From contig JALGZK010000017.1 in NCBI GenBank assembly GCA_025774935.1, positions 3,308 through 67,307 on the forward strand: DNA of 64,000 nucleotides, written 5' to 3'. Shown here piece after piece: positions 3,303-62,419 of the stretch. The notes under the pieces were generated by a model that was not told where the DNA came from, did no database searches, and worked only from the letters and a program-made list of their open reading frames with translations. Made by a program: the position numbers and the translations under genes. The stretch is from a bacterium (lineage in GTDB: Bacteria > Joyebacterota > Joyebacteria > Joyebacterales > Joyebacteraceae). Position 1 is the first letter of the stretch. Each line of letters starts with the position of its first letter.

Positions 3303-4673
3303 CTAGTGCGCCACCCTCGGCGCGTACGTGGCGTAGTCGAACTCCGGGCTGTTCTCCTTGTCGTGACAGGCACTGCAGGTCGCAGCCGTCACGACGCCGT
3401 AGGATCCGTCGCGCGCGTGGTCGGTGCCGATCCCGTGACACGCCTCACACTGGACGCTGCGGAGGATCGTCGGCACGCCGACTGATCCATCCTGCGGGAG
3501 GTCGAGGTGGCACGTCACGTGGCAGCGGAGACACTCCGGATTCGTCGATTGGTGCGCTTCCTCCAAGGTCGCGAACGCGTTCGCGTGCGCGGTCTCCATC
3601 CACTGATCGTACTGCGGCAGGTGGCACCGCTTGCAGGAGTCGTTGACACCGACGCAGACCTCCACGTACGCCTGCCTCGCCTGCGCCTTCGCCTCCCTCT
3701 CCCTCGCCCTCGCTGCTGCCCGCTCCTTGCTCAGCTCCTCGACCGCGACCTTGTGCTCCTTGAGCGCGAGCGCCATGACCGCGTCCGACGGGACCGTGTC
3801 GATGAGGGCGACGGCCTTGCCCGTGTAGCCTTCGTAGACGCCGTCGGCGTCGAAGCTCAAGCGGAAGTCCGACATGTACTGACCCTTGTATCCGGGCTGC
3901 ACGAAGACGGCCCCGCTCACCTCGTAGGGATCCGCCGAGAACGCGCTGTGGTTCCCCACGACGACGAAGTCGATCCCGCCGATCTGCCCGGCGATGTCCT
4001 TCGCCCTGGCGAGGCCCGTGTGGCTCAGGAGGATCACGAGATCCGCCTTCGTCCTGAGCTCGGGCACGAGCTCATTGAGAACAGCGTAGGGATCCGCAAT
4101 GGTGACCCCGGACGATTCGACCTCGCGGTGGGTCCTGAGATCGATTGAGGGATCCAGGACCCCCACGACCGCGAGCGTCACCCCCGCCCGTTCCACGATC
4201 ACATAGGGTTCGACGACGAGTTCCCCGGTTGATTCATCGAGGACGTTCGCCGAGACGATGGGCACGCCGCTCTCGTCGAATCGAGCGTGGAAGTAGTCGA
4301 GACCCATGTATAGGTCGTAGGCCCCGATTGTCGTCGCCGCGTATCCGATCTCCGCCATGCCCCTCAGGTTCATCGCGTCGACCATCTCGCGGGCGAACTC
4401 GCGTCGGGTCAGGGAGCTTCCGCCGTCGACGATGAGTTGGAGAGGTACGTTCTGTTCAAGCTGGTTGATGTAGCCGGCCCTCCGGACCAGCCCGCCTTTC
4501 TGGCCCCCGTGTCAGCCACAGGGCTCGAGTTCTCCCCGCGTGTCGGTGGTCACGAGGAGCGCAATCTCGAAGGGACCTTCCGGCCGTTCCACGCGCTCGG
4601 TCGTAGCGCAGCCGGCCGCGACGAGGACCGCCAGCACCACGATGAGTCCCCAACGGTTGACCAAGGCCTTCAC
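3303..4673 (-). CDS. Lipoprotein: degenerate 5'-nucleotidase/metallophosphoesterase-like domain fused to C-terminal tetraheme c-type cytochrome. Reading frame interrupted by in-frame TGA at 4512-4514 (possible pseudogene, sequencing error, readthrough or Sec)
   Basis: ORF 3303..4385 carries 4 CxxCH motifs (CKRCH, CLRCH, CEACH, CSACH) after a UshA-like region (VILLSHTG, VVVGNHS). The same frame continues upstream through TGA to a GTG/TTG start (4673/4664) after GGAGG, encoding lipoprotein signal VKALVNRWGLIVVLAVLVAAGC. UshA-like homology (LLVTTDTRGELEP ... GGLVRRAGYINQLEQNVPLQLIVDGG ... MVDAMNLRGM) spans the stop. Metal-ligand motifs are degenerate (DxH to DTR, GNHE to GAYD). Confidence 0.55.
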
Positions 4674-5928: not shown

Positions 5929-6534
5929 CTACCTGTAGAGGGCCTTGATCGTCCCCCAACTCCGGTCCTCGACCGGCACCGCGGGCACGCAGTCGCCGTC
6001 CGGAGGAGGCATGCAGACGCCGAAGTTGCCGGCGAATCCGTGCGAGTCGAGCGACGCGATGCACCAGTCATCCAGGAGGTTGTCGCAGTCCGCGCCGACG
6101 TGACCGTCGACGTCGTGCGCCAGGATCTGGACGATGCCGGGCGTGCCGAGATACAGGTACTGAACCGAGGCAGCCACCACGACGCCGTTGGCATCCGGGA
6201 ACTGGCAGTTGGCGCCGGCCGTGATCGCCCAACCGGGGGCGACTTCGACGTCGCCGAAGTCCAGACCGCCGAGGAGGTTCGTCTGGGCGAGCTTGAAGCC
6301 GGCGAACGTACGGTCGAACTTGAAGGCGGCGCCGAGCATCCCGCCGCCGCCACCGAACTGGTCGAAGCAGACGTAGACCATGATCGTCTCGTTCGGGTTC
6401 GGACAGACCTCGTTCACGACGTCGTTGCCCGTGTCCATGTCGGCATCGAGGAAAATCGCCAACTGCGGGTTCTGATCGGCGAGCGCCGTCACCGCCAGCA
6501 GCAATACGAGCAGAACTGTGACCAGCTGTCTCAC
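5929..6534 (-). CDS. Small secreted protein, paralog family 1 (B), tail PVEDRSWGTIKALYR
   Basis: ORF 5929..6612. Probable GTG start 6532-6534 9 nt after GGGAGGAG. Signal LVTVLLVLLLAVTALA-DQ. About 85% identical to A. Confidence 0.8.
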   Translation of the reverse strand: MRQLVTVLLVLLLAVTALADQNPQLAIFLDADMDTGNDVVNEVCPNPNETIMVYVCFDQFGGGGGMLGAAFKFDRTFAGFKLAQTNLLGGLDFGDVEVAPGWAITAGANCQFPDANGVVVAASVQYLYLGTPGIVQILAHDVDGHVGADCDNLLDDWCIASLDSHGFAGNFGVCMPPPDGDCVPAVPVEDRSWGTIKALYR

Positions 6535-6654
6535 GCTCACACTCCTCCCTTCTCGCTCCCTCGCCTGGTTACCTCGCCACCCATCGGGGACCCGGCATCC
6601 CGCAATCACCACCGCCGTTGCCGCGGTGCCTCACGTTCGCCGGGCCCTGAGATG

Positions 6655-6688
6655 GCGAAGGGGGCGGCGCCGACTGCGCTCCGCCCCC
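6655..6688 (-). terminator. Intrinsic terminator of paralog C
   Basis: GGGGGCGG ... CCGCCCCC 8-bp stem. Confidence 0.45.
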
Positions 6689-9325: not shown

Positions 9326-9402
9326 TGGTGGGCGAAACAGGACTCGAACCTGTGGCCCCCTGCGTGTAAGGCAGGTGCTCTAGCCAACTGAGCTATTCGC
9401 CC
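9326..9402 (-). tRNA. tRNA-Val (anticodon TAC) with encoded CCA
   Basis: Minus-strand sequence GGGCGAATAGCTCAGTTGGCTAGAGCACCTGCCTTACACGCAGGGGGCCACAGGTTCGAGTCCTGTTTCGCCCACCA folds as a cloverleaf with anticodon loop CTTACAC. Confidence 0.9.
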
Positions 9403-18335: not shown

Positions 18336-18610
18336 GCCCGGGACGTCCCCCCGGTCAGCCCTCGTTGTGAACCATGTATTATAGCCGCCGGTCCGGCGAA
18401 CGGCAACGTCAAACCGGCGCGTCCGGTCGGGCCCTGGAAGCCACGAAAGGCCCTAAACATGGGCCCGTTCCGGTCTCCGGACCCCCCGCGGCGCCGGATG
18501 CGGCTTGTGCATGAGGCCCCCTCGTGGTACTCTCGTTGGGCTGCGCCGCGCTCACTCGCGGCGTGACTCACGTCCGAATCCCTGCGACCGTCGACCCCGA
18601 GGAGCGACGA

Positions 18611-19111
18611 ATGGCCGGTTCGAAACCCGACGAGTTCAAGCCCAGAGTCATCGTCTTCTGCTGCAACTGGTGCGCGTACGCGGGCGCCGACCTGGCGGGG
18701 GTGTCGAGGATGAAGATCAGCCCTCACTTCCGCGTGGTCAGGACGATGTGCTCCGGCAGGGTCGACCCCGAGCTCATCCTCCAGGCGTTCGTGAACGGAG
18801 CGGACGGCGTCATGGTGGCCGGCTGCCACCCGGGGGACTGCCACTATCTCGAGGGGAACTACAGGGCCATGCGGCGGGTGGCGTTCCTGAAGAAGCTCCT
18901 CGAGTCGATGGGGATGGACCCCCGGCGGCTCGAGCTTCAGTGGGTCTCCGCCGGCGAGGGAGCGAGGTTCCAGGAGGTGGTGAACGAGTTCGTCGGGACC
19001 GTGAAGAGCCTCGGACCCAACCCCCACGGACCCGCGGACGAGGAGCCGGCTCCGAACCCCGAGACCGCGGGGAGTCCGGAAGCGACCGAACGGGAGCGCG
19101 CGAGCGTCTGA
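18611..19111 (+). CDS. mvhD: MvhD/FlpD-like hydrogenase iron-sulfur subunit (heterodisulfide-reductase-associated delta subunit family), stand-alone
   Basis: One of the few plus-strand genes. ATG 18611. Motifs VIVFCCNWCAYAGADLAG ... MVAGCHPGDCHY. Confidence 0.75.
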   Translation: MAGSKPDEFKPRVIVFCCNWCAYAGADLAGVSRMKISPHFRVVRTMCSGRVDPELILQAFVNGADGVMVAGCHPGDCHYLEGNYRAMRRVAFLKKLLESMGMDPRRLELQWVSAGEGARFQEVVNEFVGTVKSLGPNPHGPADEEPAPNPETAGSPEATERERASV

Positions 19112-44608: not shown

Positions 44609-46042
44609 CTAGTTCGGCGGCTCGTAGGGATCGGGAGTACCGGGCCGGATGGGTGGTTCCTTCTGGAGCGACATAACGTGGTCCGTAAGGAGTTGCCCCG
44701 CCGGCCAGCGGATCCAGCCCGCCCTGATCCACTGCGGATCGAGCGGGTTCTCTTCCTTCGGGTCGGTGTGGAGATCGTAGACGAGAGGCACCGGATACTC
44801 TTTGAGGGGCTCGCCCCACGCACGGTCGAGCTCCTTGAAGACCATTTTCCAGTTCCGCCACTTCACGCCGAAGATTTCGCTCCCGACGTAGACGATGACG
44901 CCCTCGCGGTTCGACTTCTCGTGACCACCCGTGAAGAAGTCGAGCTGGTCGATGCTGTCGATGACGCGGTCGTCGGGCACGTCGCCTCCGACCGCACTGG
45001 CAAACGTCGCGAAGAGGTCCACCTCGTGGACGATCTCGTTACTGACGAGCCCCTCGGGAACGTTCCCGGGCCACCGCATGAGGAACGGCACCCGAAGCGA
45101 GCCCTCGTAGCCTGTGAAGTAGGTGCTCCGCCACGGCCCGCTGAACCCGTGCCACGGCACCTGCGCGTCGGGCCCGTTGTCGGCGGTGAAGATGAAGATC
45201 GTCTCGTCCCGGATGCCGAGCCGGTCGACCTCGTCGAGGAGCATGCCGACGTAGACGTCGAGCTGTGCAAGAACATCGGCGAAGTCGCCGTTCCCCGTCT
45301 TCCCCGCGAAGTCCGGGTGCGGCGTGAACGGCATGTGCGTCTGCGTGTAGGGCAGGTAGAGGAAGAACGGTCTCTCGGCTTCGACCTGGCGCCGCATGAA
45401 GTCGATCGACAGCTCGGTCAGCTCGCCGTCGATGAGGGCGCGCTCCTCGAGGTCGTATACGCGGAGGTTCGCGGGCTCCTCGCCCCTCACGCCTTCCATG
45501 ATGTGCTCGGGATGCGCGAACGGATGTGAGTCGGGCCTGAAGCGGCTGTCGTTGGGCCAGAACGCCTCGTCCGAGGAGTTCGGGATCCCGTACCACTCGT
45601 CGAACCCCTGGTCCGTGGGGTATCTCCCCTCCGTGTGACCGAGGTGCCACTTGCCGAACATGCCGGTCGCGTAGCCCGCGTCCGAGAGCATCTCGGCCAT
45701 CGTGTACTCCCACTGCGTGAGGCCGTAGATCGGCGACTCGATCGGGATTGACGCGTTCCCCGTGCGGATGGCGTAGCGCCCCGTGAGGATCGCGGCCCTG
45801 CTTGGCGTGCACTGGGCTTCCACGTTGAAGTTCGTGAGCCGGATGCCCTCCGACGCGAGCTTGTCGAGCCGGGGCGTCGGCGCCCCGCGGATGATCCCGC
45901 CGCCATAGCAGCCGAGCTCCCCATACCCGAAGTTGTCCATGAAGATGAGGACGATGTTCGGCTTGGACGCGGCCTGCGCGGCCGCGGGCTTGAGCGCGAA
46001 CGTCGCGGCTAGAAGCCCGAAGACGGCCATGAGGAACTTCAT
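44609..46042 (-). CDS. Secreted sulfatase (formylglycine-dependent, CTPSR motif)
   Basis: Signal peptide [36 protein letters not shown] sulfatase signature. Confidence 0.85.
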
Positions 46043-46054
46043 CGTCTCCCCCTT

Positions 46055-47728
46055 TCACCCGTTGGGGTGAGGCAGGACCTCCCGGAGGACCCCGATCATC
46101 TCCCCGATCGTGGCGTACACCCGGGAGCACTGAACGAAGTGTGGCATCAGGTTGTCGGTGCCCTCGGCCGCGGCGCGGAGTCCCGCGAGGGCTTTCGTGA
46201 CCGCTGCGTCGTCGCGCTCCGTCCTCACCTGTGCGAGCACCTCCCGCTGCCGCTCCGCAACGTCCGCGCCGATCTTCAGGAGCTCGATCTTGATCTCCTC
46301 GCCCTCGTCGACGTGTTCGTTCACGCCGACGATTACCTGGCGGTTCTCCTCGATCGCTCGCTGGTACCGGAACGCGGCCTTCGCGATGTCGCGCTGGAAG
46401 AACCCCTTCTCGATCGCCGGGATGACGCCGCCGAGCTTCTCGATCTTGTCGAAGTAGTCGCGGCAGCCTTCCTCCATCCTGTTCGTGAGCGCCTCGACGT
46501 AGTACGACCCGCCGAGGGGGTCGATCACGTTCGGGACGCCGGACTCGTGCGCGATGACCTGCTGGGTCCGGAGGGCTACGTGCACGGCCTCTTCGGAAGG
46601 GAGCGCGAGCGACTCGTCCATCGAGTTCGTGTGGAGGCTCTGCGTTCCGCCCATCACGGCGGCCAGCGCCTCGAGCGCGGTCCGGACGACGTTGTTGAAC
46701 GGCTGCTGCGCTGTAAGGCTGCAGCCCGCCGTCTGCGTGTGGAACCGCATGAGCCACGACCGGGGGTCCTTCGCCCCGTACTTCTCCTTCATGTCGGTCG
46801 CCCAGATCCGTCTCGCGGCGCGGAACTTCGCGACCTCCTCGAAGAAATCCATGTGCGAGTTGAAGAAGAACGAGAGTCTCGGCGCGAACTCGTCGACGTC
46901 CATCCCGGCCGCGATGCCGGCCTCGACGTAGGCGAACCCGTCGGCGAGCGTGAACGCGAGCTCCTGGAGCGCGGTCGAGCCCGCCTCGCGGATGTGGTAG
47001 CCGCTGATCGATATCGTGTTCCACTGCGGGACGTCGGTCGCGCAGTACTGCATGATGTCGGTGATGATCCGCATCGAGGGCTCGGGCGGGAAGATCCAGC
47101 TCTTCTGCGCGATGTACTCCTTGAGGAGGTCGTTCTGGATCGTGCCGCGCAGCTTCTTCGAGTCGACGCCCTGTTTCTCCCCCACGCAGATGTACATGGC
47201 GAGGAGCACGGCCGCGGGAGCATTGATCGTCATCGACGTCGAGACCTTGTCGAGCGGAATCCCGTCGAAGAGGGTCTCCATGTCGCGGAGCGAATCGATC
47301 GCGACGCCGCACACGCCCACCTCGCCCTCCGCCCGTTCGTGGTCGGAGTCGTAGCCCATGATCGTCGCGAGATCGAAGGCGACCGAGAGCCCGGTCTGCC
47401 CGTGCTCGAGCAGGAACTTGTACCGTCTGTTCGAGTCCTCGGGCGTTCCGAACCCCGAGAACTGCCGCATCGTCCAGAGGCGGCCGCGGTACATGTTGTG
47501 GCGGACCCCCCGCGTGTACGGGTACTCGCCGGGGAACCCGAGGTCGTTCAGGTAGTCGAGATCCGCGACGTCGTCAGGTGTGTAGAGGAGGTCGACCTCC
47601 TCGCCGGAGACCGACGTGAACTCGGCGTCGCGCTGGCGGGACGACTCGGTGGCGTTCCCCTCCCAGGCCTTCCTCGCACCAGCGACATCGCCGGTTCCGC
47701 TCTTCTTCGTGGTGTCAACGTCCGCCAT
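46055..47728 (-). CDS. Second acyl-CoA mutase catalytic subunit (methylmalonyl-CoA mutase family, no B12 domain)
   Basis: ATG 47726-47728 after GGGAGG (MADVDTTKK). About 60% similar to 36690..38381 ([22 protein letters not shown]). Confidence 0.8.
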
Positions 47729-49487
47729 CGCTGCCTCCCATGAGAGCGACGACCTGGGCCAGGAGCTGGTCAGACGAGAAGTGCGCCATCGAGATCGTGC
47801 CCGAAGGACACGCCGCCGCGCACGTGCCGCAGCCCTTGCAGAGCGCCTCGTTGCAGCTCGACACGTCCTTCTCCTCGTCGAGCGTGAGAGCGCCGTAAGG
47901 GCAGACGGAGATGCAGATCCTGCAGCCTGCGCAGAGGTCCTCGTCGATCGAGCACGAGAGAGCCTCGACCGTGACCGTGCCCTTCGACATCGGGATGATC
48001 GCCGAGGACGCTGCGGCCTTCGCCTGGGCGACCGTGTCGGGGATGTCCTTCGGCCCCTGGCAGCAGCCGGCGAGGTAGATGCCCTCGCTCGCGGTGTCGA
48101 CGGGACGGAGTTTCGGGTGGGCCTCCATGAGGAAGTTGTCCTGGGAGCAGCAGAGCTTGAGCGCGTTCGCGAGGCGTCCGGTGCCCTCGCGAGGGACGAG
48201 CCCCGCCGCCAGGACGACGAGGTCGGCCTCGACGTCAAGCGGCTCGCCCTCGAGCGTGTCCTCGCCCCGAACGACCAGTCGGTCCTTCCTCTTGTAGATC
48301 TCGGAGACGCTCCCGCGCCGGTAGATGACCCCCTCCTTCCGCACGCGGTCGTAGAACTCCTCGAACCCCTTCCCGAACGCCCGGATGTCCATGTAGAAGA
48401 CCGTCACGTTCGCGTCGGGGATCTTCTCCTTCACGAGGTGCGCCTGCTTCGCAGTGAACATGCAGCAGACGCGCGAGCAGTACTCGTTCCCCACGGTCTC
48501 GTCGCGCGAGCCCACGCACTGGATGAACACGACGTCCTTGGGCTTCTTCCCCGCGATCACGATCTCTCCTGTCGTCGGACCCGACGCCGAGCAGATTCGC
48601 TCCATCTCGAGCCCGGTGATCACGTTCTCGTACGAGGCGTACCCGAGCTCGGGCTTGAGGCAGGGGTCGAACTCGTCGAAGCCCGTCGCGACGACGACCG
48701 TTCCGACCTGAAGCGGCTCCTCCCGCTCCTCCATCTCGTAGTCGATCGCGTCGGGACCACAGACCTTCTCGCACACGCCGCAGGTGCCCAGGGTCTTCTT
48801 CAGGCAGTGCTCGTCGTCGAGCACGGGGACCGCGGGGACCGCCTGCGGGAACGGGAGGTAGATCGACGACCTCGAGACGAGACGGGTGTCGAACTCGGAC
48901 GCGAGCGGCCGGGGCGTGAGGTCGGTGATGAGCCCGAGGTCGATCGCGTCGGTCGGGCAGATGAACTCGCACGCGCCGCAGGCGATGCAGACCTCCGACT
49001 TCTCGGCATACGGCGTGGCGATCGCGCGGTTGTCGCCTCGCCCGCGGAACGCGAGCGCTCCGGCTCCTACGACGTCGCGGCACATGCGGACGCAGAGCCC
49101 GCACATGATGCAGCGGTTGTCGCTCCGGTCCTCGGGCGTCCGGAACGGGGTCCCCTCGATCCCGAGCTTCGCCGCGAGGTCGCGGATCTCGACCGCGTCC
49201 GGCGCTTCGGCGAGCATGAGCTCGACGACGAACCGCCGCGCCTTCCGGACCATCTCGGAGTCGGTCCGGACCTCGCCCTCCCACGCGGGGTAGGTGCACG
49301 CCGGGTGCAGCCTCGACTTCCCCTTCCAGATCGTCTCCACCACGCAGACCCGGCACGCGCCGTACGGGGTGAGCCCCCGGTAGGTGCAGAGCGTCGGGAT
49401 CTCGATCCCGAGCTCGACGGCCGCCTCGAGCACGGTCCGGTTCTGGTCGGCCTCTATCTCGTGTCCGTCGATGATCAGGAGACCCAT
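47715..49487 (-). CDS. Fusion: NuoG-N-terminal-like 2Fe-2S ferredoxin + 2x[4Fe-4S] + C-terminal half of HdrA (FAD domain second half + C-terminal ferredoxin)
   Basis: [13 protein letters not shown]...[15 protein letters not shown] (2Fe-2S), [23 protein letters not shown], then HdrA-like VVATGFDEF...CVGSRD...CCMFTAKQA...CCQGPKDIP and terminal [12 protein letters not shown] / [12 protein letters not shown]. Confidence 0.75.
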
Positions 49488-49554
49488 TCCCGGTGTTCCT
49501 CTCGTTCCTTTGGTGTCCATGGCTTCGCGGCGCGGGCGCCCGGCGCCCCCGCCG

Positions 49555-51408
49555 CTACTCGATCTTGATCGCGTCGAACTTGCAGGACTCGAAGCAGATG
49601 CCGCACTTGATGCACTCGTCCTGGTCGATCGCGTGGACCTTCTTGGGCTCGCCCTCGATGCACTCCTGCGGGCACTTCTTCGCGCATACGGTGCAGCCGG
49701 TGCAGGCGTCGGCGATCACGCTGTACGTGACGAGCGCCTTGCAGACCCCGGCCGGGCAGCGCTTCTCCTCGATGTGCGCGCGGTACTCGTCCTTGAAGTA
49801 CCGGAGGGTCGTCAGGACCGGGTTCTGCGCGGTCGAGCCGAGCTGGCAGAGAGCGGTCTGTTCGAGACCCCACGAGAGGTACTCGAGCTCGTCGATGTGC
49901 CTGGCCTCCCCGTTTCCGTCGCAGATGTCTGAGAGTATCGCGTGCATCTGGCGAAGGCCCTCGCGGCACGGGGTGCACTTCCCGCACGACTCGTCCTTCA
50001 GAAACCCGACGAAGTACTTCGCGATGTCGACCATGCAGTTCCTGTCGTCCATCACGATCATGCCGCCCGAGCCCATCATCGATCCCGCCTCGGTGAGGCG
50101 GTCGAAGTCGACCTCGAGGTCGAGGAGGTCGGCCGGGATGCAGCCCCCGGAGGGCCCTCCCGTCTGGACCGCCTTGAACTCGCGCCCGCCGCGGATGCCG
50201 CCGCCGATGTCGTCGACGATCTCGCGGAGCGTGACGCCCATCGGGACCTCGACGAGACCGGTGTTCACGACTTTGCCCACGAGCGAGAAGATCTTCGTGC
50301 CCTTGCTCCCCTCGGTTCCGATCTCGGCGAACCAGTCTGCGCCCTTGTCGACGATCAGGGGCACGTTCGCCCAAGTCTCGACGTTGTTGAGGACCGTCGG
50401 GCGCATGCGGAGCCCGCGCTCCACCGTGTGGATGTGCTTCGGCCTCGGCTCGCCTGGGCGTCCCTCGATCGACGCCATGAGCGCGGTCGATTCGCCGCAG
50501 ACGAACGCGCCGCCCCCGCGCGCCACCGACACGTCGAACGCGAACCCTGTGCCGAGGATGTTCTCTCCGAGGAGCCCCGCCGCGCGCGCGTCGTCGAGGG
50601 CGCGGGTGAAGTTCGCGACCGCGAGCGGGTACTCCTCGCGGACGTAGATGTAGCCCTCGTTCACTCCGAGGGCGAACGCGCCGATCACCATCCCTTCGAG
50701 GACGCTGTGCGGGTTACCCTCGAGGATGCTCCTGTCCATGTACGCGCCGGGGTCGCCCTCGTCCGCGTTGCAGATGAGGTAGCGCGTGTCCCCGGGCGCC
50801 TTCAGGCACGACTCCCACTTCTTCCCGGTCGGGAAGCCCCCGCCGCCCCTCCCGCGGAGACCTGACGACTTCACGGCCGCCACGATCTCGTCGGGCATCA
50901 TCGAGCCGAGCGCCTTCGCCAGCGGCGCGTATCCACCGATCGCGACGTAGTCCTCGATGCTCGTGGGATCGAGAACGCCGTTCCTGCCGAGGATGAGCCG
51001 CGTCTGGTGCTTGTAGAACGGAACGTCCTCCTCGCGGACGATCTTCTCGCCGGACGCGGAGTCGACGTAGAGGAGCCGCTCGACGAGACCGTCGCCCACG
51101 ACGGATGTTTCGACGACCTCAGGAACGTCCTCGGGCTTGACCTGCTGGTAGAGCGTGCCGCCGGGCTGGATGACGACGAGCGGTCCCCTCTCGCAGAACC
51201 CGTGGCACCCCGTCGTCAGCACGCGGACCTTCGACGCGAGGCCTCGCGATTCGACCTCCTCACGGAACGCCTCCGCGACCTTCCCGCCGCCGCATGCGAT
51301 GCAGCCGGTACCGCAGCAGACCGCGACCACGCGCGCGCCCGGATCCCGCTCCTTCAGGATCTCCTTCCGCGCCTTGTCGAGGTCTGCGATGTCCTTGACG
51401 TGCCTCAT
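49555..51408 (-). CDS. NuoF/HndC-like NAD(H)-binding flavoprotein with N-terminal thioredoxin-like 2Fe-2S and C-terminal 2x[4Fe-4S] domains
   Basis: ATG 51406-51408 after GGAAGGAAC. GRGGGGFPTGKKW NADH/FMN motif, ESCGKCTPCREG, C-terminal CTGCTVCAKKCP / CIKCGICFESC. Confidence 0.85.
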   Translation of the reverse strand: MRHVKDIADLDKARKEILKERDPGARVVAVCCGTGCIACGGGKVAEAFREEVESRGLASKVRVLTTGCHGFCERGPLVVIQPGGTLYQQVKPEDVPEVVETSVVGDGLVERLLYVDSASGEKIVREEDVPFYKHQTRLILGRNGVLDPTSIEDYVAIGGYAPLAKALGSMMPDEIVAAVKSSGLRGRGGGGFPTGKKWESCLKAPGDTRYLICNADEGDPGAYMDRSILEGNPHSVLEGMVIGAFALGVNEGYIYVREEYPLAVANFTRALDDARAAGLLGENILGTGFAFDVSVARGGGAFVCGESTALMASIEGRPGEPRPKHIHTVERGLRMRPTVLNNVETWANVPLIVDKGADWFAEIGTEGSKGTKIFSLVGKVVNTGLVEVPMGVTLREIVDDIGGGIRGGREFKAVQTGGPSGGCIPADLLDLEVDFDRLTEAGSMMGSGGMIVMDDRNCMVDIAKYFVGFLKDESCGKCTPCREGLRQMHAILSDICDGNGEARHIDELEYLSWGLEQTALCQLGSTAQNPVLTTLRYFKDEYRAHIEEKRCPAGVCKALVTYSVIADACTGCTVCAKKCPQECIEGEPKKVHAIDQDECIKCGICFESCKFDAIKIE

Positions 51409-51457
51409 GCTGTTCCTTCCGTGTGGTCTGTCGTCCGCCGCCCGGACGGAGCGCTGG

Positions 51458-52801
51458 TCACGCGCCCGCGTGGGCCGCGAAGACGTCGTCGGTCCCACCG
51501 GGTGCCACGGAGTGGTACTCGTTGTCCATCACGACCACCGGGCCGAGCGCGCAGCATCCCAGGCAGTTCACCGTGAGAAGAGTGTAGGCGAGGTCGTCGG
51601 TCGTCTCTCCCGGACCGATCCCGAGCCGGCGCTCTAACTCTTCGAGCACGCGCACCGCGCCGCGCGCGTGGCAGGCGGTGCCCATGCAGACCTTGATGAT
51701 CTGTTTCCCGCGAGGCTCGAGGCTGAACGAGGTGTAGAACGACGCCACGTGGTAGATCGTCGCCGGCGGGATGCCGAGCCGGAACGACACGTACTTGAGC
51801 GCGTCGACCGGCAGGTAGTTGTACTCGATGTTCACGTCCTGGAGGATCTGGATGAGCTCCTCCGCGTCTGCGCCGTGCTCCGCGATGATCTCGTCGAGCT
51901 TCCCCCGGTCTCCATCCGCGAGGTCGCGTGGGATGCCCGGCGGCTCGCGGAGCTGCGGCACGTTCCTAATCGGACACTCGGCGTAGCAGAGCCCGCAGTT
52001 CGTGCACTTGTCGATGTCGACGTAGCGCGCCTTCCTCGTGATGGTCGCCGTGAAGTTCCCGATGTACCCCTCGGTCTCCTTGATCTCGGAGTAGGTCATG
52101 AGGTCGATGTTCGGGTGCCTCCCTGCGTCGACCATCTTCGGGGTCAGGATGCAGGCCGAGCAGTCGAGCGTCGGGAACGTCTTGTCCAGCTGCGCCATGC
52201 GTCCGCCGATCGTCGCGTCCTTCTCGACGAGGTGGACGCGGTACCCCGCCTCGGCGATGTCGAGCGCGGACTGGATGCCCGCGATGCCGCCGCCCACGAC
52301 CAGCGCCTCCGGGATGACGGGGACCTCCCGCTCGATGAGGGGCTTCAAGTGCGTCGCCCGCGCGGCCGCGGCCCGGACGAGGTCGATCGCCTTCTCGGTC
52401 GCCGCCTCCGGGTCCTCGGTGATCCACGAGCACTGCTCGCGGATGTTGGCCATATCGAAGAGGTACTGGTTCACGCCGGCGTCGGCGAGGGCCGCCCGGA
52501 AGGTCGGCTCGTGCATCCTCGGAGAGCACGCGGCGACAACGACCGCCGTGAGATCGTTCTTCTCGATGTCTTCCTTGATGAGCGTCTGGCCGGGGTCGGA
52601 GCACATGTACGGGTAGGTCTTCGAGACGACGACGTTCGGGAACGTCGACGCGACCTCCGCCACCCTCCTCACGTCAACCATGTAGGCGATGTTGATCCCG
52701 CAGTGGCAGACGTAGACGCCGACCCTGGGTTCCCTCTCGAGAGCGGGCCCGGCGTTTCTCGTCCCGCCGCCTTCCGCCGGCGAGCGGTCTTCCTTGGCCA
52801 T
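51458..52801 (-). CDS. Fusion: N-terminal half of HdrA (Cys cluster + FAD-binding Rossmann) + C-terminal NuoE-like thioredoxin-fold 2Fe-2S domain
   Basis: VYVCHCGINIA, VVGGGIAGIQSALDIA (FAD), CTNCGLCYAECP, then NuoE-like VCMGTACHARG ... CLGCCALGPVVVMD. AAGGAG RBS. Confidence 0.75.
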   Translation of the reverse strand: MAKEDRSPAEGGGTRNAGPALEREPRVGVYVCHCGINIAYMVDVRRVAEVASTFPNVVVSKTYPYMCSDPGQTLIKEDIEKNDLTAVVVAACSPRMHEPTFRAALADAGVNQYLFDMANIREQCSWITEDPEAATEKAIDLVRAAAARATHLKPLIEREVPVIPEALVVGGGIAGIQSALDIAEAGYRVHLVEKDATIGGRMAQLDKTFPTLDCSACILTPKMVDAGRHPNIDLMTYSEIKETEGYIGNFTATITRKARYVDIDKCTNCGLCYAECPIRNVPQLREPPGIPRDLADGDRGKLDEIIAEHGADAEELIQILQDVNIEYNYLPVDALKYVSFRLGIPPATIYHVASFYTSFSLEPRGKQIIKVCMGTACHARGAVRVLEELERRLGIGPGETTDDLAYTLLTVNCLGCCALGPVVVMDNEYHSVAPGGTDDVFAAHAGA

Positions 52802-52837: not shown

Positions 52838-53812
52838 CTAGGCGCGGAGCTCGGTGATCTTCTCGGTCAGGGCCGGAACGACCTTCATGAGGTCGCCCAC
52901 GATGCCGTAGTGCGCCGCCTGGAAGATGGGGGCCTTCGGGTCCTTGTTGATCGCGACGATGGTCTCGGCGGACTTCATGCCGGCCACGTGCTGGAACTGC
53001 CCGGAGACGCCGATCGCGACGTAGAGTTTCGGCTTGACGGTCTTCCCGGACGAACCGACCTGACGGTCCTTCGGGAGCCACCCGGCGTCGACGACTGGGC
53101 GCGAGCACGCGACGACCCCGCCCAGGAGCTCGGCGAGGCCGGTGATCAAGGGCATGTTCTCCTCTTCCTTGATCCCTCGGCCGATGGCGATGACCACGTC
53201 CGACTTCGTGATGTCGACCTCGCCCGCGGCGGCCTCGACGTACTCGACGAACCGGCGGAACGCGGGCTCATCGGGGACCTCGGTGTCGAGGGCAACGACG
53301 CTCCCGCCGCGCGAGGCCTCCTCCGGTGCGAAGGCGGCGGGTCGAACCGTCACGAGGCTGATCGCGGCGCCGCCGAACCCCACCCGCTCGTTGACCTTCC
53401 CGCCGTACGTCTGCCGGGTCCCCACGAGGTCGGACCCTTCGACCGCGAGGTCGATGACGTCTGACGCGAGCGGGGCGTCGAGCGCGACCGCGAGGCTGGG
53501 AGCCAGGTCGACGCCGAACGCGGTGTGGCCGATCATAACGACCGACGGCTCCCGCCCCCGGATGACGTCGGCCAGAACCGGCTGATAGACTGCCGAGTTG
53601 TAGTGCGCGAACCCATCGTGATCGCGGACGAGGACCTCGTCGGCCTGCTGCGCGAGCCTCTCCGCGAGATCGCCAACGCCCGATCCGAGAAGGACCGCGG
53701 CGACCTTCGTCCCGGACGCGTCGGCCACTCCCCTCGCGTGCGCGAGCATCTCGAAGGTCACGTCCTTGAGTTCGCCGTTCAGGTGTTCAGCGAGGACAAG
53801 CACGTCGTTCAT
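52838..53812 (-). CDS. etfA: Electron transfer flavoprotein alpha subunit
   Basis: 324 aa EtfA fold, C-terminal FAD-binding [19 protein letters not shown]. Confidence 0.85.
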
Positions 53813-54601
53813 CTACGCGAATCCCTTCTCTTTGAGAACGTCGGCAAGCTTCGTGGACGCCTCGGCGGGCGTCCCGTCGAGGATCTCCGCACCCTCGCCG
53901 GCCGGCGGGTAGTCGAGTCCAAGGAGCGTCGTCTTCGAGCCCGCCTTCCCGGCCTCGGCGGTGTCGAGACCGAGGTCGGACGCGGCCTTCGTGTCGATGT
54001 CGCGCTTGGCCGCCTTCGCGATCCCCATGATCGAGGCGTAGCGGGGCTCGTTGATGCCGGTCTGGATCGTCACGACGGCGGGGAGCTTGATCTCGAGCTT
54101 CTCCAGGAGCCCGCCCTCGAGCTCGCGTCCGACGGTCACGGCGCCGTCGCCGATCTCCATCTCGGTGACGTACGTGGCGTGCGGCACGCCGAGCATCTCG
54201 GCGAGCGTGACGCCGACCTGGGTCATCCCGTCGTCCGACGCCATGCACCCTGTGAGAACCAGGTCGTACTCCATCCCGCCGATGGCCTTGGCGAGCGCGT
54301 TCGCCGTCGCCCACGCGTCCCCGCCATCGAACGCCGGGTCAGCGAGGCGGACCGCCTCGGTCGCGCCCTTCGCCATGCACATCCGGAGGACCTCCTCGGA
54401 GGAGTCCGGACCGAGCGTGATCACGGTGACCTCGCCGTCCCTGTCCTCCTTGATGAGGAGCGCCTCCTCGAGCGCGTAGTTGTCGGACTCGTTGATCTGG
54501 AGAGGAAGCCCCTCCATCTCGATGCCGCTCCCGTCTGAGGCGATCCTGACGTCGGCCTCGGCGGTGTCCGGCACCTGTTTCACGCATACGACGATGTTCA
54601 T
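53813..54601 (-). CDS. etfB: Electron transfer flavoprotein beta subunit
   Basis: ATG 54599-54601 (MNIVVCVKQVPDT). Confidence 0.85.
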   Translation of the reverse strand: MNIVVCVKQVPDTAEADVRIASDGSGIEMEGLPLQINESDNYALEEALLIKEDRDGEVTVITLGPDSSEEVLRMCMAKGATEAVRLADPAFDGGDAWATANALAKAIGGMEYDLVLTGCMASDDGMTQVGVTLAEMLGVPHATYVTEMEIGDGAVTVGRELEGGLLEKLEIKLPAVVTIQTGINEPRYASIMGIAKAAKRDIDTKAASDLGLDTAEAGKAGSKTTLLGLDYPPAGEGAEILDGTPAEASTKLADVLKEKGFA

Positions 54602-54659: not shown

Positions 54660-55781
54660 CTAGAGCGCCATCGCGGCGAGCTCGGCGAGGTCGAGTATCT
54701 CGATCTTCCCCTCGCAGCCACTCGTCTTCACCGCGTCCTCGAGGGTCAGGAGGCAGAACGGACACGCGGTCACGAGTGTGTCCGCTCCGAGCTCGACGGC
54801 GTCCTTGACCCGCGTGTCGGCGAGACGCTCGCCCCTCTCGTCCTCCGCCTCGACCCACATCCTCCCGCCGCCGCCTTCGCAGCAGAGGGCGCGCTCGCGG
54901 GAACGGTCGAGGTCCTCGAACTCGACACCCGAGATGCGTTCGATCACGCTCCGGGGCTCGTCGAAGATCGCGTTGTGCTTCCCGAGGAAGCAGGGGTCGT
55001 GGTACGTCACCTTCCGCTCCACGCTTCCCTTGAACGCGAGCTTCCCTTCGTCGAGAAGCCCCGCGAGGTACTGCGAGTAGTGCACGACCTCGTCCGCGAC
55101 GCCGCCGTACTCGTTCAGGAGCGTGTTCATGCAGTGGGGCGAGCTCGTCACGACCGCGTCGATCGAGTGGCTGGCGAACGCTTCTCGGTTCCCCTCGACG
55201 AGAAGCTCGAAGAGCCCCTCCTCTCCCATCCGCTTGACCTCGTTCCCGCAGCACGACTCGGCTGCGCCCAGGGTCGAGTAGCCGACGCCGGCCGCCTCGT
55301 AGAGACGGACGAGCGCCCGGGCGACGTCCTGGCACCGGGGATCGTAGGCCGGCGTGCACCCGACGTACCAGAGGAGCGGGACGGCGTCGCCGTCTCCCGC
55401 GACCGGAACGTCGAGTTCGTCTGCCCACTCGGTCCTCTTCTCCCTGCCCCGGCCCCACGGGTTCCCGTGCTTGAACGTGCTCTCGAGCGCGTCCCTGATC
55501 GTAGGCGAGACCTTCCCCCGCTCGATCGAGGAACCGCGAAGCCCAATCAGAAGTTCCATGGGCTTCACGCCCTTCGGGCAGCGCTCCGTGCACGTCGCGC
55601 ACGTGGTGCAGCTCCAGGCCTCCGGACGTTCGTGCGCGCCCTTCGGGGCCGGCCCGATGAGCCCGTCGTAGACGACCTTCCGCACATTCAGATACGTGCG
55701 GAGCGACACCGGGCAACCCGCCGTGCACCTCCCGCACTGGATGCAGCCGAGGAGCTCGTACTTGTCAGCAAGTGATGGCAT
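54660..55781 (-). CDS. HdrD/GlcF-like Fe-S oxidoreductase (2x[4Fe-4S] + two CCG cysteine-rich domains), ETF-associated
   Basis: CIQCGRCTAGCP, CTTCATCTERCP, CCG domains (ESCCGNE, CCEGGGG). Confidence 0.75.
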   Translation of the reverse strand: MPSLADKYELLGCIQCGRCTAGCPVSLRTYLNVRKVVYDGLIGPAPKGAHERPEAWSCTTCATCTERCPKGVKPMELLIGLRGSSIERGKVSPTIRDALESTFKHGNPWGRGREKRTEWADELDVPVAGDGDAVPLLWYVGCTPAYDPRCQDVARALVRLYEAAGVGYSTLGAAESCCGNEVKRMGEEGLFELLVEGNREAFASHSIDAVVTSSPHCMNTLLNEYGGVADEVVHYSQYLAGLLDEGKLAFKGSVERKVTYHDPCFLGKHNAIFDEPRSVIERISGVEFEDLDRSRERALCCEGGGGRMWVEAEDERGERLADTRVKDAVELGADTLVTACPFCLLTLEDAVKTSGCEGKIEILDLAELAAMAL

Positions 55782-55830: not shown

Positions 55831-56973
55831 CTACTTGAGCTCGTTCCGCGCGATGACGAGCTTCTGGATCTGGCTCGTCCCCTCGTAGATCTCGATGATC
55901 TTCGCGTCCCTGTACATCCTCTCGACGGCGTACTCCTTCGAGTAACCGTAGCCGCCGTGAATCTGGACGGCCTTCCTCGTCACGTCGACCACGATCTCCG
56001 CGGCGAAGTACTTCGCCATCGCGGCCTCGCGCGTGAACCTCTTGGCGCCAGCGTCCTTCATCGAGGCGGACCGGTAGACGAGGAGCCTCGCGGCGTCGAT
56101 CTTGGTCGCCATGTCGGCGATCATGTCCTGGATCATCTCGAACTCGGCGATGGGCTTCCCGAACTGCTGCCGCTCCTTCGCGTACTTCACCGAGGCGTCC
56201 AGGGCGCCCTGCGCGATGCCGACTCCCTGCGCGCCGATGTCGATCCTCGAGACGTCCAGCGTGGTCATGACGACCTTGAACCCCTGCCCCTCCTCACCCA
56301 GCAGGTTCTCCTTCGGGACCATGCAGTCGTCGAAGATGAGTTCGGTGTTGCCGGTGGCGCGGATGCCCATGAGGTTCTCGTGCTTCCCGATCGAGAACCC
56401 CGGGAAGTCCTTCTCGACGATGAAGGTGCTCATCCCCTTGTGCCGGGCGGAAGGGTCGGTGTACGCGAACACGATGAAGAGCCCCGCCGCCTCCGCATTC
56501 GTGATCCAGCACTTCGTCCCGTTCAGCCTGTAGTGGTCGCCCTCGAGGACCGCGGTCGTCTCCATCGACGCGGGGTCCGACCCGGCGTTCGGCTCGGTGA
56601 TGCCGATGGCGCCGAGCGCCTTCCCGGACGCGAGCATCGGGAGGTACTTCTTCTTCTGCTCCTCGGTCCCGAACTGGAAGATCGGGAACGTGGCGAGCGA
56701 GTTATTCACCGCGGTGATCACGCCGGTCGAAGCGCAGACCCGCGAGATCTCCTCGACGATGATCGCGAGCGTGGTGAAGTCCATTCCCGCTCCGCCGTAC
56801 TCCTCGGGAATCACGACGCCGAGGAGCCCCAGCTCCGCCATCTTCTTCATGGTCGCGTGAGGGAACTCGCGAGACTCGTCGATCTCCGCGGCGATGGGCT
56901 CGATCTCGTTCATGGCGAACTCGCGCACCATGTCGCGGACCATCTTTTGGTCCTGGCTCAAGCTGAAGTCCAT
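55831..56973 (-). CDS. Acyl-CoA dehydrogenase (butyryl-CoA dehydrogenase-like), ETF-partnered
   Basis: 380 aa ACAD. Confidence 0.85.
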   Translation of the reverse strand: MDFSLSQDQKMVRDMVREFAMNEIEPIAAEIDESREFPHATMKKMAELGLLGVVIPEEYGGAGMDFTTLAIIVEEISRVCASTGVITAVNNSLATFPIFQFGTEEQKKKYLPMLASGKALGAIGITEPNAGSDPASMETTAVLEGDHYRLNGTKCWITNAEAAGLFIVFAYTDPSARHKGMSTFIVEKDFPGFSIGKHENLMGIRATGNTELIFDDCMVPKENLLGEEGQGFKVVMTTLDVSRIDIGAQGVGIAQGALDASVKYAKERQQFGKPIAEFEMIQDMIADMATKIDAARLLVYRSASMKDAGAKRFTREAAMAKYFAAEIVVDVTRKAVQIHGGYGYSKEYAVERMYRDAKIIEIYEGTSQIQKLVIARNELK

Positions 56974-60754: not shown

Positions 60755-61113
60755 TGGTGGAGGCGGCGGGAGTCGAACCCGCGTCCGAAAGCGATTCCAC
60801 ACGGACCTCTACATGCTTAGCCCGATCTTTGGATCTCGCCCCCCGGGTCTCCAATGGGCGGGATACCCGGCGAGCCAGCCACCGTATAGAGTTCGCCTCC
60901 TCACCCAGCGGCAAAGCTCGGAGACTATCCCGTGTAAGCGACGCCCCATCCCGGCCCCACGGGCAAAACCGGGTGGGACGCGTCCGCTCTAGTTAGCAGA
61001 CGTATGCCGGCTGGTAGTCGGCAGTTGAAAAGTCCCCGTTTGTTTAACGAGCCAACGGGACCTCGGCATGCCATCCGTGTTTCTCTCACCCCCGTCGAAA
61101 CCGGATCGCCCCC
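60755..61113 (-). ncRNA. ssrA: tmRNA (ssrA)
   Basis: Minus strand starts GGGGGCGAUCCGGUUUCGACGGGGG and ends GGGUUCGACUCCCGCCGCCUCCACCA (tRNA-Ala-like acceptor/T-arm + CCA). Candidate tag region GCCGACUACCAGCCGGCAUACGUCUGCUAA. Confidence 0.85.
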
Positions 61114-61642: not shown

Positions 61643-62419
61643 CTACTTCCCGTAGCAGGACAGCTCGAGCGCTCCCGACTCCGGACACTCTGACACGCAG
61701 TCGAGGCAGTTGGTGCAGTTGCGGGCGGTCACCTCGATCTCTCGCGAGACCGGGATCTGGTGCGGGCACACCCGGTCGCACTCTCCGCACTCCGTGCAGG
61801 CTTCGGGGTTCCGCCGGACGCGGAGCCCGCCGTAGCGGGAGAGCGGGTCCATGACGGCGCCGAGCGGGCAGAGGTAGCGGCACCAGAAGAACGGAACGAG
61901 CACCGCGGCCGCGAGGATCGCGAAGAGGATGTAGAAGCTGAACGCGGCGGTCCCGTGTCCGCCCCACGTGAACAGGATGTAGAACGGGTCGTACGCGCGG
62001 AACCCGAGGTCGCCCTTCCAGACGGTCCACGTGAGCAGGAGCACCAGGACGAGCACGACGTAGCGGAGGTTCATCGCCCAGCGGTCGCCGCGGTCGGGCA
62101 GGTGGAACGACCGGCCGAAGACCTTCCGGCCCGCGCGGGAGAGCCACTCGCTCACTGTCCCGAACGGGCAGACCCAGCTGCAAAACGACTTCTTCGTCGC
62201 GATCGTGAGCACGAAGAGGGACACCATGAGGGACACGTTGAGCTCGGTAAGCCGGCACGTGTACTGGCCGTACCGCGCGAGCGGTAAGAGCGCTGCAACG
62301 CCCCCGAATGGGCAGTACGCCTCGCAGGTGTTCGGCGTCAGCCCGGCGATCCCCCTCGCCATGAGGACGACCGTGCCGGCCAGAAACGCGATCTGAACGA
62401 GTGTCCTGAGAACCCTCAC
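61643..62419 (-). CDS. Membrane-bound 4Fe-4S polyferredoxin (NapH/MauN/CcoG-like family)
   Basis: Multiple TM helices plus CTECGECDRVCP and CTNCLDCVSECP clusters. Confidence 0.7.
   Translation of the reverse strand: MRVLRTLVQIAFLAGTVVLMARGIAGLTPNTCEAYCPFGGVAALLPLARYGQYTCRLTELNVSLMVSLFVLTIATKKSFCSWVCPFGTVSEWLSRAGRKVFGRSFHLPDRGDRWAMNLRYVVLVLVLLLTWTVWKGDLGFRAYDPFYILFTWGGHGTAAFSFYILFAILAAAVLVPFFWCRYLCPLGAVMDPLSRYGGLRVRRNPEACTECGECDRVCPHQIPVSREIEVTARNCTNCLDCVSECPESGALELSCYGK

Follow-up and report, generated by a model that had tools for sequence, protein, structure and literature searches.

A split HdrA fused to a Bfu-type module in an ETF-linked operon: a candidate two-stage electron-bifurcating complex from a Joyebacteraceae genome

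Flavin-based electron bifurcation lets anaerobes reach redox reactions beyond single steps. The serial coupling of two different bifurcating modules was first shown in a 2026 preprint on class II benzoyl-CoA reductase (BCRII), according to which low-potential electrons leave the HdrA flavin through the inserted ferredoxin domain in Hdr and BCRII alike, a lysine at flavin N5 (Lys409 in 5ODC, Lys280 in BamE) is a hallmark of Hdr-type bifurcating flavins, and BamD, whose distal non-cubane cluster is degraded by a Cys-to-Ser change, docks the electron-transferring flavoprotein (ETF) and passes high-potential electrons to it (10.64898/2026.04.10.717634). In the Bfu family, BfuB with its extra clusters represents an NAD(H)- and ferredoxin-reactive bifurcating core, and the published types are FeFe, NiFe, Fdh, Nfn, F420, Wor, Bam, Codh, Por, Mbh, Nuo and Rub (PMC9304861); that classification contains no Hdr-fused or ETF-linked Bfu type, and Bam-Bfu is the only member with an HdrA module, present there as separate subunits. 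Here, a 64,000-nucleotide stretch of contig JALGZK010000017.1 (assembly GCA_025774935.1, positions 3,308 to 67,307), hereafter referred to as the window, is described, in which an HdrA is split at its inserted ferredoxin domain over two genes, designated P1 and P3, whose HdrA halves are fused to Bfu domains, while the intervening gene P2 encodes a BfuB-type subunit. No description of such a split was found in the literature, where a brief earlier mention may exist.

A sequence-only reading of the window had proposed that HdrA is divided over two minus-strand genes located at the positions of P1 and P3 (Table 1), that the first of these ends in a NuoE-like domain, that the second begins with a NuoG-N-terminal-type ferredoxin and continues as the second half of HdrA with its C-terminal ferredoxin, and that a NuoF/HndC-like protein is encoded between them. 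All three genes are indeed present there, and profile and PDB comparisons bear out each of these assignments. P1 residues 26-279 correspond to positions 1-256 of the 777-position NCBIfam HdrA2 profile (E 4.8e-115) and residues 23-281 align with residues 2-261 of the methanogen HdrA 5odc_A (E 3e-101), while residues 300-431 belong to the 2Fe-2S_thioredx/HoxE/NuoE family (Pfam PF01257, E 5e-43) and residues 300-441 align with HydC of a bifurcating hydrogenase (8a6t_C, E 6e-39), the [2Fe-2S] ligands being C372, C377, C413 and C417. The N-terminal ~183 residues of P3 contain a Fer2_4 domain and two [4Fe-4S] motifs and resemble HoxU, the N-terminus of FeFe-hydrogenase A6, 9mqx_A and 8a6t_A, while the remainder corresponds to positions 253-641 of the HdrA2 profile and to residues 239-649 of 5odc_A (E 2e-131). 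The BfuA part of P3 is thereby predicted to carry three clusters, as short Type-2 BfuA does. The start positions adopted for P2 (51408) and P3 (49487), the shorter options in both cases, fit the homologue lengths of 617 aa and 588-590 aa, respectively, and the codon-position GC of the three genes follows the same pattern as that of neighbouring genes.

P2 exhibits the Pfam domains Complex1_51K, SLBB and NADH_4Fe-4S (nuoF_fam profile, E 1e-140), and matches subunits of bifurcating enzymes, i.e., 7t2r_B, 9mqx_B and HydB, end to end (E ~1e-230), with residues 28-614 aligning with residues 8-594 of 7t2r_B and the Cys conserved. Sequence matches add a thioredoxin-like [2Fe-2S] domain at the N-terminus, a [4Fe-4S] cluster of the N3 type and, at the C-terminus, a ferredoxin-binding 2x[4Fe-4S] domain. 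Since these are all of the extra domains that distinguish bifurcating HydB (criteria of PMC9304861), P2 is assigned as a full bifurcating-type HydB/BfuB and not a plain NuoF. The features that define the Bfu family are thus distributed over the three genes, with a BfuB retaining all of its domains represented by P2, BfuC by the C-terminal domain of P1 and BfuA by the N-terminal domain of P3. The proposal that a HydABC/NuoEFG-like module has been inserted into HdrA therefore holds as regards the insertion, while the module is of the bifurcating HydBC/Bfu type rather than a plain NuoEFG.

On the HdrA2 profile, the HdrA half of P1 ends at position 256 and that of P3 begins at 253 (5odc_A residues ~261 and ~260), and because the halves meet at the same profile position the arrangement represents a clean fission rather than two paralogous fragments. 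Alignment with the unsplit HdrA P0195 (662 aa, Ca. Eisenbacteria), to which the C-terminal half is 70% identical, places the junction to within one or two residues: P0195 reads '...CTSCGDCIEKCPSRVP' followed by 'SEFNEG...', with the cut after '...CPSRVP', while the HdrA part of P1 ends in '...CTNCGLCYAECPIRNVP' ('...CPIRNVP') and P3 resumes with '...ASEFDTRL...'. The cut separates the inserted ferredoxin domain's two Cys motifs and falls directly after the first, CxxCxxCxxxCP, which places the first motif (C266-C276) on P1 and the second (C228, C236, C239 and C243) on P3. With ~3.2 kb of Bfu coding sequence separating the halves, this HdrA is not the single polypeptide that is otherwise a hallmark of the protein. 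In a 2x[4Fe-4S] ferredoxin fold both motifs provide ligands to each cluster, so that P1 and P3 are predicted to require association in order to build the inserted domain, and an association of this kind must, as judged from the sequences, be needed to rebuild one complete HdrA. A complete HydBC/Bfu-type module is, by sequence, covalently tethered exactly at the cut.

The remaining hallmarks of HdrA are retained. The HdrA half of P1 holds the Cys-rich N-domain (residues 26-130, [4Fe-4S]), which aligns with 5odc_A/8rvu_a, as well as the FAD Rossmann motif GGGIAGIQ and a CxxC pair; C32, C34, C67, C92 and C124 are invariant among 22 aligned family members, as are all HdrA cluster-ligand Cys in the family alignment. 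In the TrxR-like domain of P3, a [4Fe-4S]-binding CVGSRD...YCSRVCCM segment stands in place of the NAD(P)H dinucleotide motif. K347 is the counterpart in the alignment of 5odc_A residue 409, the flavin-N5 lysine of the M. thermolithotrophicus HdrA, and P3 also keeps the 2x[4Fe-4S] ferredoxin domain found at the C-terminus of HdrA. The HdrA-specific N-terminal Cys cluster is consequently present, and domain searches returned HdrA features and no GltD/NfnB signature, which disposes of the concern that the flanking genes might be ordinary glutamate synthase/NfnB-like proteins. Furthermore, 80 of 87 family members have 33 residues between the last BfuA Cys motif and the 'PFPQ' motif of HdrA (the equivalent spacing up to 'PFPQ' is 19 residues in unsplit HdrAs), and this near-constant length argues for a fixed geometry rather than a floppy linker.

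A search for the same arrangement in other genomes, as advised by the sequence-only reading, showed it to be a widespread cassette that is not unique to the window's genome. Clustering at 90% gives more than 120 clusters of P1-type fusions that align over their full length and are 54-81% identical to P1, and the BfuA::HdrA-C architecture occurs in 95 of the best 120 matches to P3, clustered at the same level. At 50% clustering only ~4-8 full-length fusion representatives remain, compared to 1276 HdrA-like representatives (E <= 1e-30), and the split family is real and widespread yet a small branch of HdrA diversity; a genome scan with HdrA N-domain patterns, which returned mostly ordinary HdrA, provides no census of it. 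Chance is excluded because the fusion architecture recurs across clusters with all cluster-ligand Cys invariant. The carriers listed include Ignavibacteria, Zixibacteria, Terriglobia, Vicinamibacterales, Anaerolineales, Myxococcales, Gemmatimonadota, Spirochaetales and KSB1 among the bacteria, and Thermoplasmata, Promethearchaeota and Syntropharchaeia among the archaea.

Three classes of genetic context were distinguished for the cassette. In the first, an HdrD-like or HdrCB gene set precedes P1-P2-P3, which is followed by MvhD and the MvhG/A [NiFe]-hydrogenase; MvhD and Mvh hydrogenase genes follow the cassette in loci L005, L009, L025, L067, L069 and L088. In the second, represented by L086 and L087, the cassette is accompanied by Flx NADH modules and MvhD. 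An HdrBC or HdrD-like gene lies upstream of the cassette in L003, L025, L069, L087 and L088, and MvhD directly follows the P3 homologue in almost all split-HdrA loci other than the window. The third class, with the order acyl-CoA dehydrogenase(s) (ACAD), HdrD-like protein, EtfBA, in some cases flavodoxin, and P1-P2-P3, comprises the window, L081-83 (75-90% identity), L084/85 (52-65%, with MvhD following) and L092 (49-68%, without MvhD), and conservation of the block across such divergence, in lineages with as little as 53-67% identity, argues for a functional unit. The flavodoxin gene, located at 9431-9910 in L084/L085 between EtfA and the P1 homologue, encodes a possible low-potential partner in place of ferredoxin.

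Several variants of the cassette were also observed. In L025 (5090-8996), L067 (10786-14728) and L069 (3177-7086) the N-terminal half of HdrA is a stand-alone gene of ~286 aa, separated from a stand-alone NuoE-type gene by a sensory-type [FeFe]-hydrogenase-like gene (Fe_hyd_lg_C and PF04060), a PHP phosphoesterase gene and a HATPase_c kinase-like gene. Such a sensory cassette is described as typical of HydABC operons, and its presence at the split site hints that the insert derives from a HydABC-type operon together with its regulatory cassette. A class of BfuA::HdrA-C proteins of ~500-523 aa (P0159, P0160, P0162, P0170 and about 30 others) covers 82-87% of P3, is ~70-90 residues shorter and is 61-69% identical to the window's protein in its HdrA-C part; as judged from length and coverage, its members probably lack the C-terminal ferredoxin domain. 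P0234 (742 aa) is a triple fusion in which BfuA::HdrA-C is joined to an MvhD (PF02662) domain, while in L091 (8645-11776) the P1-type and P3-type genes adjoin with no BfuB gene between them.

Unsplit counterparts of the operon exist in related genomes. Outside the window's own clade, the nearest relatives of both HdrA halves are unsplit HdrAs of 659-662 aa, with 72-76% identity to the C-terminal and 69-73% to the N-terminal half, compared to at most 66% for other split proteins. The related metagenome-assembled genomes with an unsplit hdrA are, where named, Ca. Eisenbacteria. In L089 (GCA_964562405.1) and L090 (GCA_043815815.1) the same operon is found gene for gene with an intact hdrA (662 aa) and without the Bfu genes, in the order CobA-MeaB-ACAD-HdrD-like-EtfB-EtfA-HdrA-methylmalonyl-CoA mutase-B12-ACAD-Lactamase_B-carboxyltransferase-biotin carboxylase. 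The flanking proteins exhibit 74-87% identity to those of the window, equally in the split locus L081 and in the unsplit L089 and L090, and these loci and the window constitute a natural pair with and without Bfu. Split and unsplit HdrAs are intermingled at three or more points of rough neighbour-joining trees built without bootstrap, and in such trees the Bfu parts from ETF-linked loci fall together with their counterparts in L087, L001 and L091. Evidently, repeated gain or repeated loss of the cassette has taken place at one and the same position of HdrA. In L089, a tblastn match (~5851) with 81% identity to the operon's first ACAD corresponds to no gene on the operon strand in the source annotation, with only a small opposite-strand open reading frame (6291-6674) called inside it; this stretch may be an uncalled gene or a pseudogene.

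The presence of an HdrD-like CCG protein and of EtfAB upstream of the split HdrA, which the sequence-only reading had also pointed out, was verified by domain searches (Table 1). The closest PDB match of the HdrD-like protein is mycobacterial EtfD (9ojn_A, E 2e-62), followed by HdrC. Its first CCG domain contains SPHC where EtfD has CPHC (Ser214), and this substitution (Ala in L089) is present in all homologues encoded beside ETF and/or HdrA; in kind, it recalls the Cys-to-Ser change of BamD. The protein is proposed to be an adaptor between ETF and the high-potential arm of HdrA. As regards ETF itself, EtfB carries the motif 'DDGMTQVGV', compared to motifs like DGDTAQVGP in group 2 bifurcating EtfB, which bind a second FAD instead of AMP. 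Among PDB entries, the non-bifurcating W3A1 ETF gives the best score for EtfB, whereas for EtfA the scores of the bifurcating CarE and C. difficile EtfA equal that of the W3A1 protein.

The window has a G+C content of 67%, and nearly all genes of the region lie on the minus strand. Upstream of P1 on the operon strand are CobA, MeaB, an ACAD, the HdrD-like protein, EtfB and EtfA, and the position of the ACAD is kept in L081, L090, L084 and L092. Downstream, the ATG (47728) of a methylmalonyl-CoA-mutase-family gene overlaps the end of P3 by 14 nt, an order that is shared by L081, L089 and L090, and P1-P2-P3 belong, by translational coupling, to a branched-chain acyl-CoA/propionyl-CoA operon. Elsewhere the window consists of a large island of branched-chain amino-acid, acyl-CoA and propionyl-CoA metabolism, with two Leu/Glu-type dehydrogenases, two further ACADs, two carboxylase sets, a second mutase, thiolases, a 3-hydroxyacyl-CoA dehydrogenase and an acetate/butyrate-type kinase. 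Scanning of its genes by Pfam revealed no HdrBC (neither directly following the split HdrA, as the sequence-only reading had noted, nor elsewhere in the window), hydrogenase, Flx or tungsten AOR genes. An orphan MvhD (FlpD) gene is located 29 kb from P1-P2-P3, between a YggS-like PLP gene and a thiolase gene and with no hydrogenase or Hdr gene nearby; its product is a candidate for the adaptor that would serve the HdrA flavin's third arm.

Table 1. Coordinates of the split HdrA, its fused Bfu parts and associated genes in the window
Feature	Position	Strand	Basis or description
P1, whole gene	51458-52801	-	447 aa; HdrA N-half + NuoE/HydC-type domain
P1 residues 26-282, HdrA N-terminal half	51956..52726	-	HdrA2 profile, 5odc_A, family Cys alignment, junction alignment
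P1 residues 300-441, NuoE/HydC/BfuC-type thioredoxin-like [2Fe-2S] domain	51479..51904	-	PF01257, 8a6t_C
P2, BfuB/HydB-type NAD(H)- and FMN-binding subunit, 617 aa	49555..51408	-	Pfam, nuoF_fam, PDB
P3, whole gene	47715-49487	-	590 aa; BfuA/HoxU-type polyferredoxin + HdrA C-half
P3 residues 1-183, BfuA/HoxU-type [2Fe-2S] + 2x[4Fe-4S] polyferredoxin	48939..49487	-	Fer2_4, Fer4_21, HoxU, FeFe_hydrog_A6 N-terminus
P3 residues 184-196			13-residue tether between BfuA domain and HdrA C-half
P3 residues 197-590 + stop, HdrA C-terminal half	47715..48899	-	HdrA2 profile, 5odc_A, residue mapping
EtfA	52838-53812	-	Pfam ETF_alpha
EtfB	53813-54601	-	Pfam ETF
Soluble HdrD-like protein: HdrC-like 2x[4Fe-4S] domain + two CCG domains	54660..55781	-	Pfam CCG, Fer4_8
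ACAD, first redox gene of conserved block, presumed ETF reductant or oxidant	55831..56973	-	Pfam Acyl-CoA_dh_N/M/1
Methylmalonyl-CoA-mutase-family gene, operon context outside redox module	46055..47728	-	Pfam MM_CoA_mutase
Orphan MvhD (FlpD) gene, likely start near 18611	18524..19111	+	Pfam FlpD E 2e-55; tblastn, context

A number of further features were observed in the window. A sulfatase-family gene (477 aa, 44609-46042, minus strand) lies between the mutase gene and a B12-binding-domain gene, which adjoin each other in the syntenic loci L081, L089 and L090, where no sulfatase homologue was detected. A Cytochrome_C554-family multihaem cytochrome (3303-4385) and a Fer4_5 polyferredoxin (61643-62419), both on the minus strand, indicate that the organism may also possess respiratory electron-transfer components; a multihaem cytochrome gene is located near the split cassette in L092 as well. 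A tmRNA gene (60755-61113, minus strand) with the tag peptide ADYQPAYVC and a tRNA-Val(tac) gene (9326-9402, minus strand) are also present.

It is proposed, with about even confidence, that the products of the operon form a soluble iron-sulfur complex with several flavins, and that two bifurcating devices in series within it link ETF/acyl-CoA to NAD(H) and ferredoxin. The HdrD-like protein is assigned to the high-potential arm because it is homologous to the ETF-oxidising EtfD and to HdrC, and electrons would pass along this arm between ACAD, ETF, the HdrD-like protein, the [4Fe-4S] cluster of the HdrA TrxR domain and the bifurcating FAD. Bfu is assigned to the low-potential arm because relatives fill the other two arms with HdrBC and with MvhD-hydrogenase or Flx, and here electrons would pass between the FAD, the N-domain cluster, the clusters of the split inserted ferredoxin domain, the BfuA clusters and the BfuB FMN. 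Bfu would then stand in for free ferredoxin as the low-potential partner of HdrA and exchange electrons with NAD(H) and with ferredoxin or flavodoxin, resulting in a two-stage ('cascade'), membrane-independent bifurcation or confurcation between the acyl-CoA/enoyl-CoA couple, via ETF, and the NAD(H) and ferredoxin pools. For example, electrons leaving the low-potential arm of HdrA near -400 mV could be split by Bfu between NAD+ (~-280 mV) and ferredoxin (~-500 mV); the potentials used in these energetic arguments are from PMC9304861 and the BCRII preprint, while the arithmetic is our own. Compared to the syntenic unsplit HdrA, which would use ferredoxin alone, the second stage would shift the gear ratio and the redox span. 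The catabolic context, i.e., degradation of branched-chain acyl-CoA and propionyl-CoA, suggests that ETF is the donor in vivo and that the complex operates in the confurcating direction.

Several points weigh against this scheme. The electron path from BfuA to the inserted domain is a putative one, suggested by topology, and in BCRII, the only characterised machine that combines Bfu and HdrA, electrons from Bfu enter the mid-potential arm by way of the C-terminal ferredoxin domain and MvhD/BamF (10.64898/2026.04.10.717634). No enzyme for this MvhD-side mid arm is encoded in the operon, nor in that of L092 or of the unsplit L089 and L090, which leaves the three-arm scheme incomplete. Direct binding of NADH by HdrA was considered as a supply for the missing arm and is unlikely, since the alignment reads as a replacement of the dinucleotide motif by the CVGSRD cluster-binding segment. 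The catabolic direction is also awkward, as ~-390 mV (Bfu) and ~0 mV (ETF) average ~-200 mV, a potential for which there is no obvious acceptor. Finally, the window's ETF may be either bifurcating or non-bifurcating, its motif and PDB similarity being ambiguous.

The main rival, though an unlikely one, is a wiring like that of BCRII. Bfu would in that case constitute the input, confurcating NADH and reduced ferredoxin, and its electrons would reach the HdrA flavin on the mid-potential side, by way of the C-terminal ferredoxin domain and MvhD, while the outputs would be ETF, on to enoyl-CoA or the respiratory chain, at high potential and, via the reassembled inserted domain, a very low-potential acceptor, be it free ferredoxin or flavodoxin, or some reductase. 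Electron flow of this type is experimentally supported in the sole characterised machine with Bfu, HdrA, BamD and ETF, and is in agreement with the MvhD gene of the window, with the position of MvhD behind the cassette in nearly all relatives and with the flavodoxin gene within the L084 operon. Set against this, Bfu is fused at the inserted ferredoxin domain and not at the C-terminal domain, with a tether of conserved length, and the MvhD arm is already occupied by Mvh hydrogenase or Flx in relatives. Moreover, the window genes scanned include none for a low-potential consumer of the BamBC kind, and the use of ferredoxin as donor and acceptor at once would make for a futile net reaction.

Quite improbable is a third reading, in which the complex would be a 'Type 2' Bfu enzyme with ETF/enoyl-CoA as its high-potential third substrate: NADH and reduced ferredoxin would reduce ETF, and then enoyl-CoA, downhill, with HdrA and the HdrD-like protein reduced to a non-bifurcating wire that serves as a one-electron/two-electron adaptor. 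High-potential third substrates, such as menaquinone or H2O2, have been proposed by Schut et al. (PMC9304861), and such a role would be consistent with the finding that partners for only two arms of the HdrA flavin are encoded in cis. It conflicts with an HdrA flavin site that has kept every bifurcating feature, the N5 Lys and the full set of six clusters among them, and would waste reduced ferredoxin, run opposite to the catabolic context and leave the unsplit HdrA of the syntenic loci, devoid of an NAD(H) site, without a function. As for the notion that the parts are separate or degenerate, i.e., an hdrA pseudogene with an inserted hydrogenase-diaphorase cassette or GltD/NfnB-like flanks, which has in its favour only the unusual gene structure and the sensory cassette at the split site of L025, L067 and L069, it is barely conceivable in view of intact frames, in-frame fusions conserved with invariant ligands in at least 100 clusters of bacteria and archaea, codon-position GC like that of neighbouring genes, HdrA matches of E 1e-101 and 1e-131 and the lack of a GltD/NfnB signature, and both the pseudogene and the GltD/NfnB identity are rejected on this domain and conservation evidence.

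If the cascade scheme is true, the ETF-linked form would represent a membrane-independent route by which ETF reduced by ACADs is re-oxidised against NAD+ and ferredoxin, and thereby an alternative solution to the long-standing 'uphill acyl-CoA oxidation' problem of anaerobes; it bears on the way in which these organisms dispose of high-potential electrons from acyl-CoA oxidation. The operon pairs with and without Bfu in Eisenbacteria-like genomes would then be a natural gear change; in any case they provide a ready comparison for the benefit of a second bifurcation stage. The two module types that are coupled in BCRII have here been coupled again by a different evolutionary route, in which HdrA was opened at its low-potential ferredoxin domain and a HydBC-type module spliced in, and in bacteria and archaea of many phyla the resulting cassette is joined to ETF/ACAD, [NiFe] hydrogenases or Flx NADH modules. 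We tentatively suggest, while rating it as somewhat doubtful, that the split HdrA::Bfu constitutes a distinct and undescribed class of cascade bifurcating enzyme, in which the low-potential arm of HdrA is hard-wired into a HydBC-type FMN module to give two voltage-amplifying stages. Its main interest lies in the precise splice site, in the reuse of the cassette with ETF, hydrogenase and Flx partners and in the availability of syntenic unsplit controls.

Among described systems, the closest characterised one is the class II benzoyl-CoA reductase Bam[(BC)2DEFGHI]2 of Geobacter metallireducens (10.64898/2026.04.10.717634), which is likewise soluble and combines a HydBC/Bfu-type module (BamGHI) with the HdrA-type BamE and with BamD, an HdrD/HdrBC-like protein that hands electrons to ETF; it is the BamDEFGHI-ETF portion that the locus resembles. 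It differs in possessing a tungsten-pterin BamBC module, for which no AOR-family counterpart was found among the window genes scanned, and in that BamE is a fused double HdrA, whereas the HdrA described here is single and split into two polypeptides. In addition, Bfu is docked via BamI and BamF at the C-terminal domain in BCRII and is covalently fused at the inserted ferredoxin domain here; BamF (MvhD) is part of the complex there and is encoded outside the operon, by the distant orphan gene, here; and BCRII acts in aromatic ring reduction, in contrast to the acyl-CoA catabolism context of the window. With the Bfu family (HydABC, NiFe-HydABCSL, Wor-Bfu, Nfn-Bfu; Schut et al. 2022, PMC9304861), the locus shares a full-length BfuB (P2) and BfuC- and BfuA-like domains, the latter two being fused to HdrA halves instead of forming free subunits.

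The HdrA fold, cofactor ligands and flavin-N5 lysine are shared with MvhAGD-HdrABC of methanogens (PDB 5ODC), whose HdrA exhibits ~55-60% identity, and with FlxABCD-HdrABC of sulfate reducers, and relatives of the cassette occur in HdrCB...MvhDGA or ...FlxDCBA clusters. In the window, by contrast, an ETF-linked HdrD-like protein replaces HdrBC, no hydrogenase or Flx is encoded in cis, and the inserted ferredoxin domain is interrupted by Bfu and would not reduce free ferredoxin. Homology links the HdrD-like protein to the cytoplasmic CCG/Fe-S part of mycobacterial EtfD, the ETF:menaquinone oxidoreductase (PDB 9OJN; PMC13083937), that takes electrons from ETF. Unlike EtfD, it has no membrane domain and is encoded beside HdrA, and its electrons are therefore predicted to stay in the soluble complex and not to enter the quinone pool. 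The resemblance to HdrL of Desulfobacterium autotrophicum (PMC2702500), to which the sequence-only reading had likened the locus, holds loosely, in that an HdrA-like protein has been given an NAD(P)H-binding function by fusion. HdrL is one large, unsplit polypeptide with a GltD/NfnB-type domain and no NuoE/F/G-type module, whereas no GltD/NfnB-type NAD(P)H-FAD domain was found in P1-P3 by Pfam and NCBIfam searches, the only NAD(H) site being that of the NuoF-type P2. Bcd-EtfAB and CarCDE, finally, are soluble as well and involve the same set of substrates, i.e., acyl-CoA/enoyl-CoA, NAD(H) and ferredoxin; their bifurcation takes place at the EtfB FAD, whereas the operon described here would bring two more bifurcating modules to this reaction, one at the HdrA FAD and one at the Bfu FMN.

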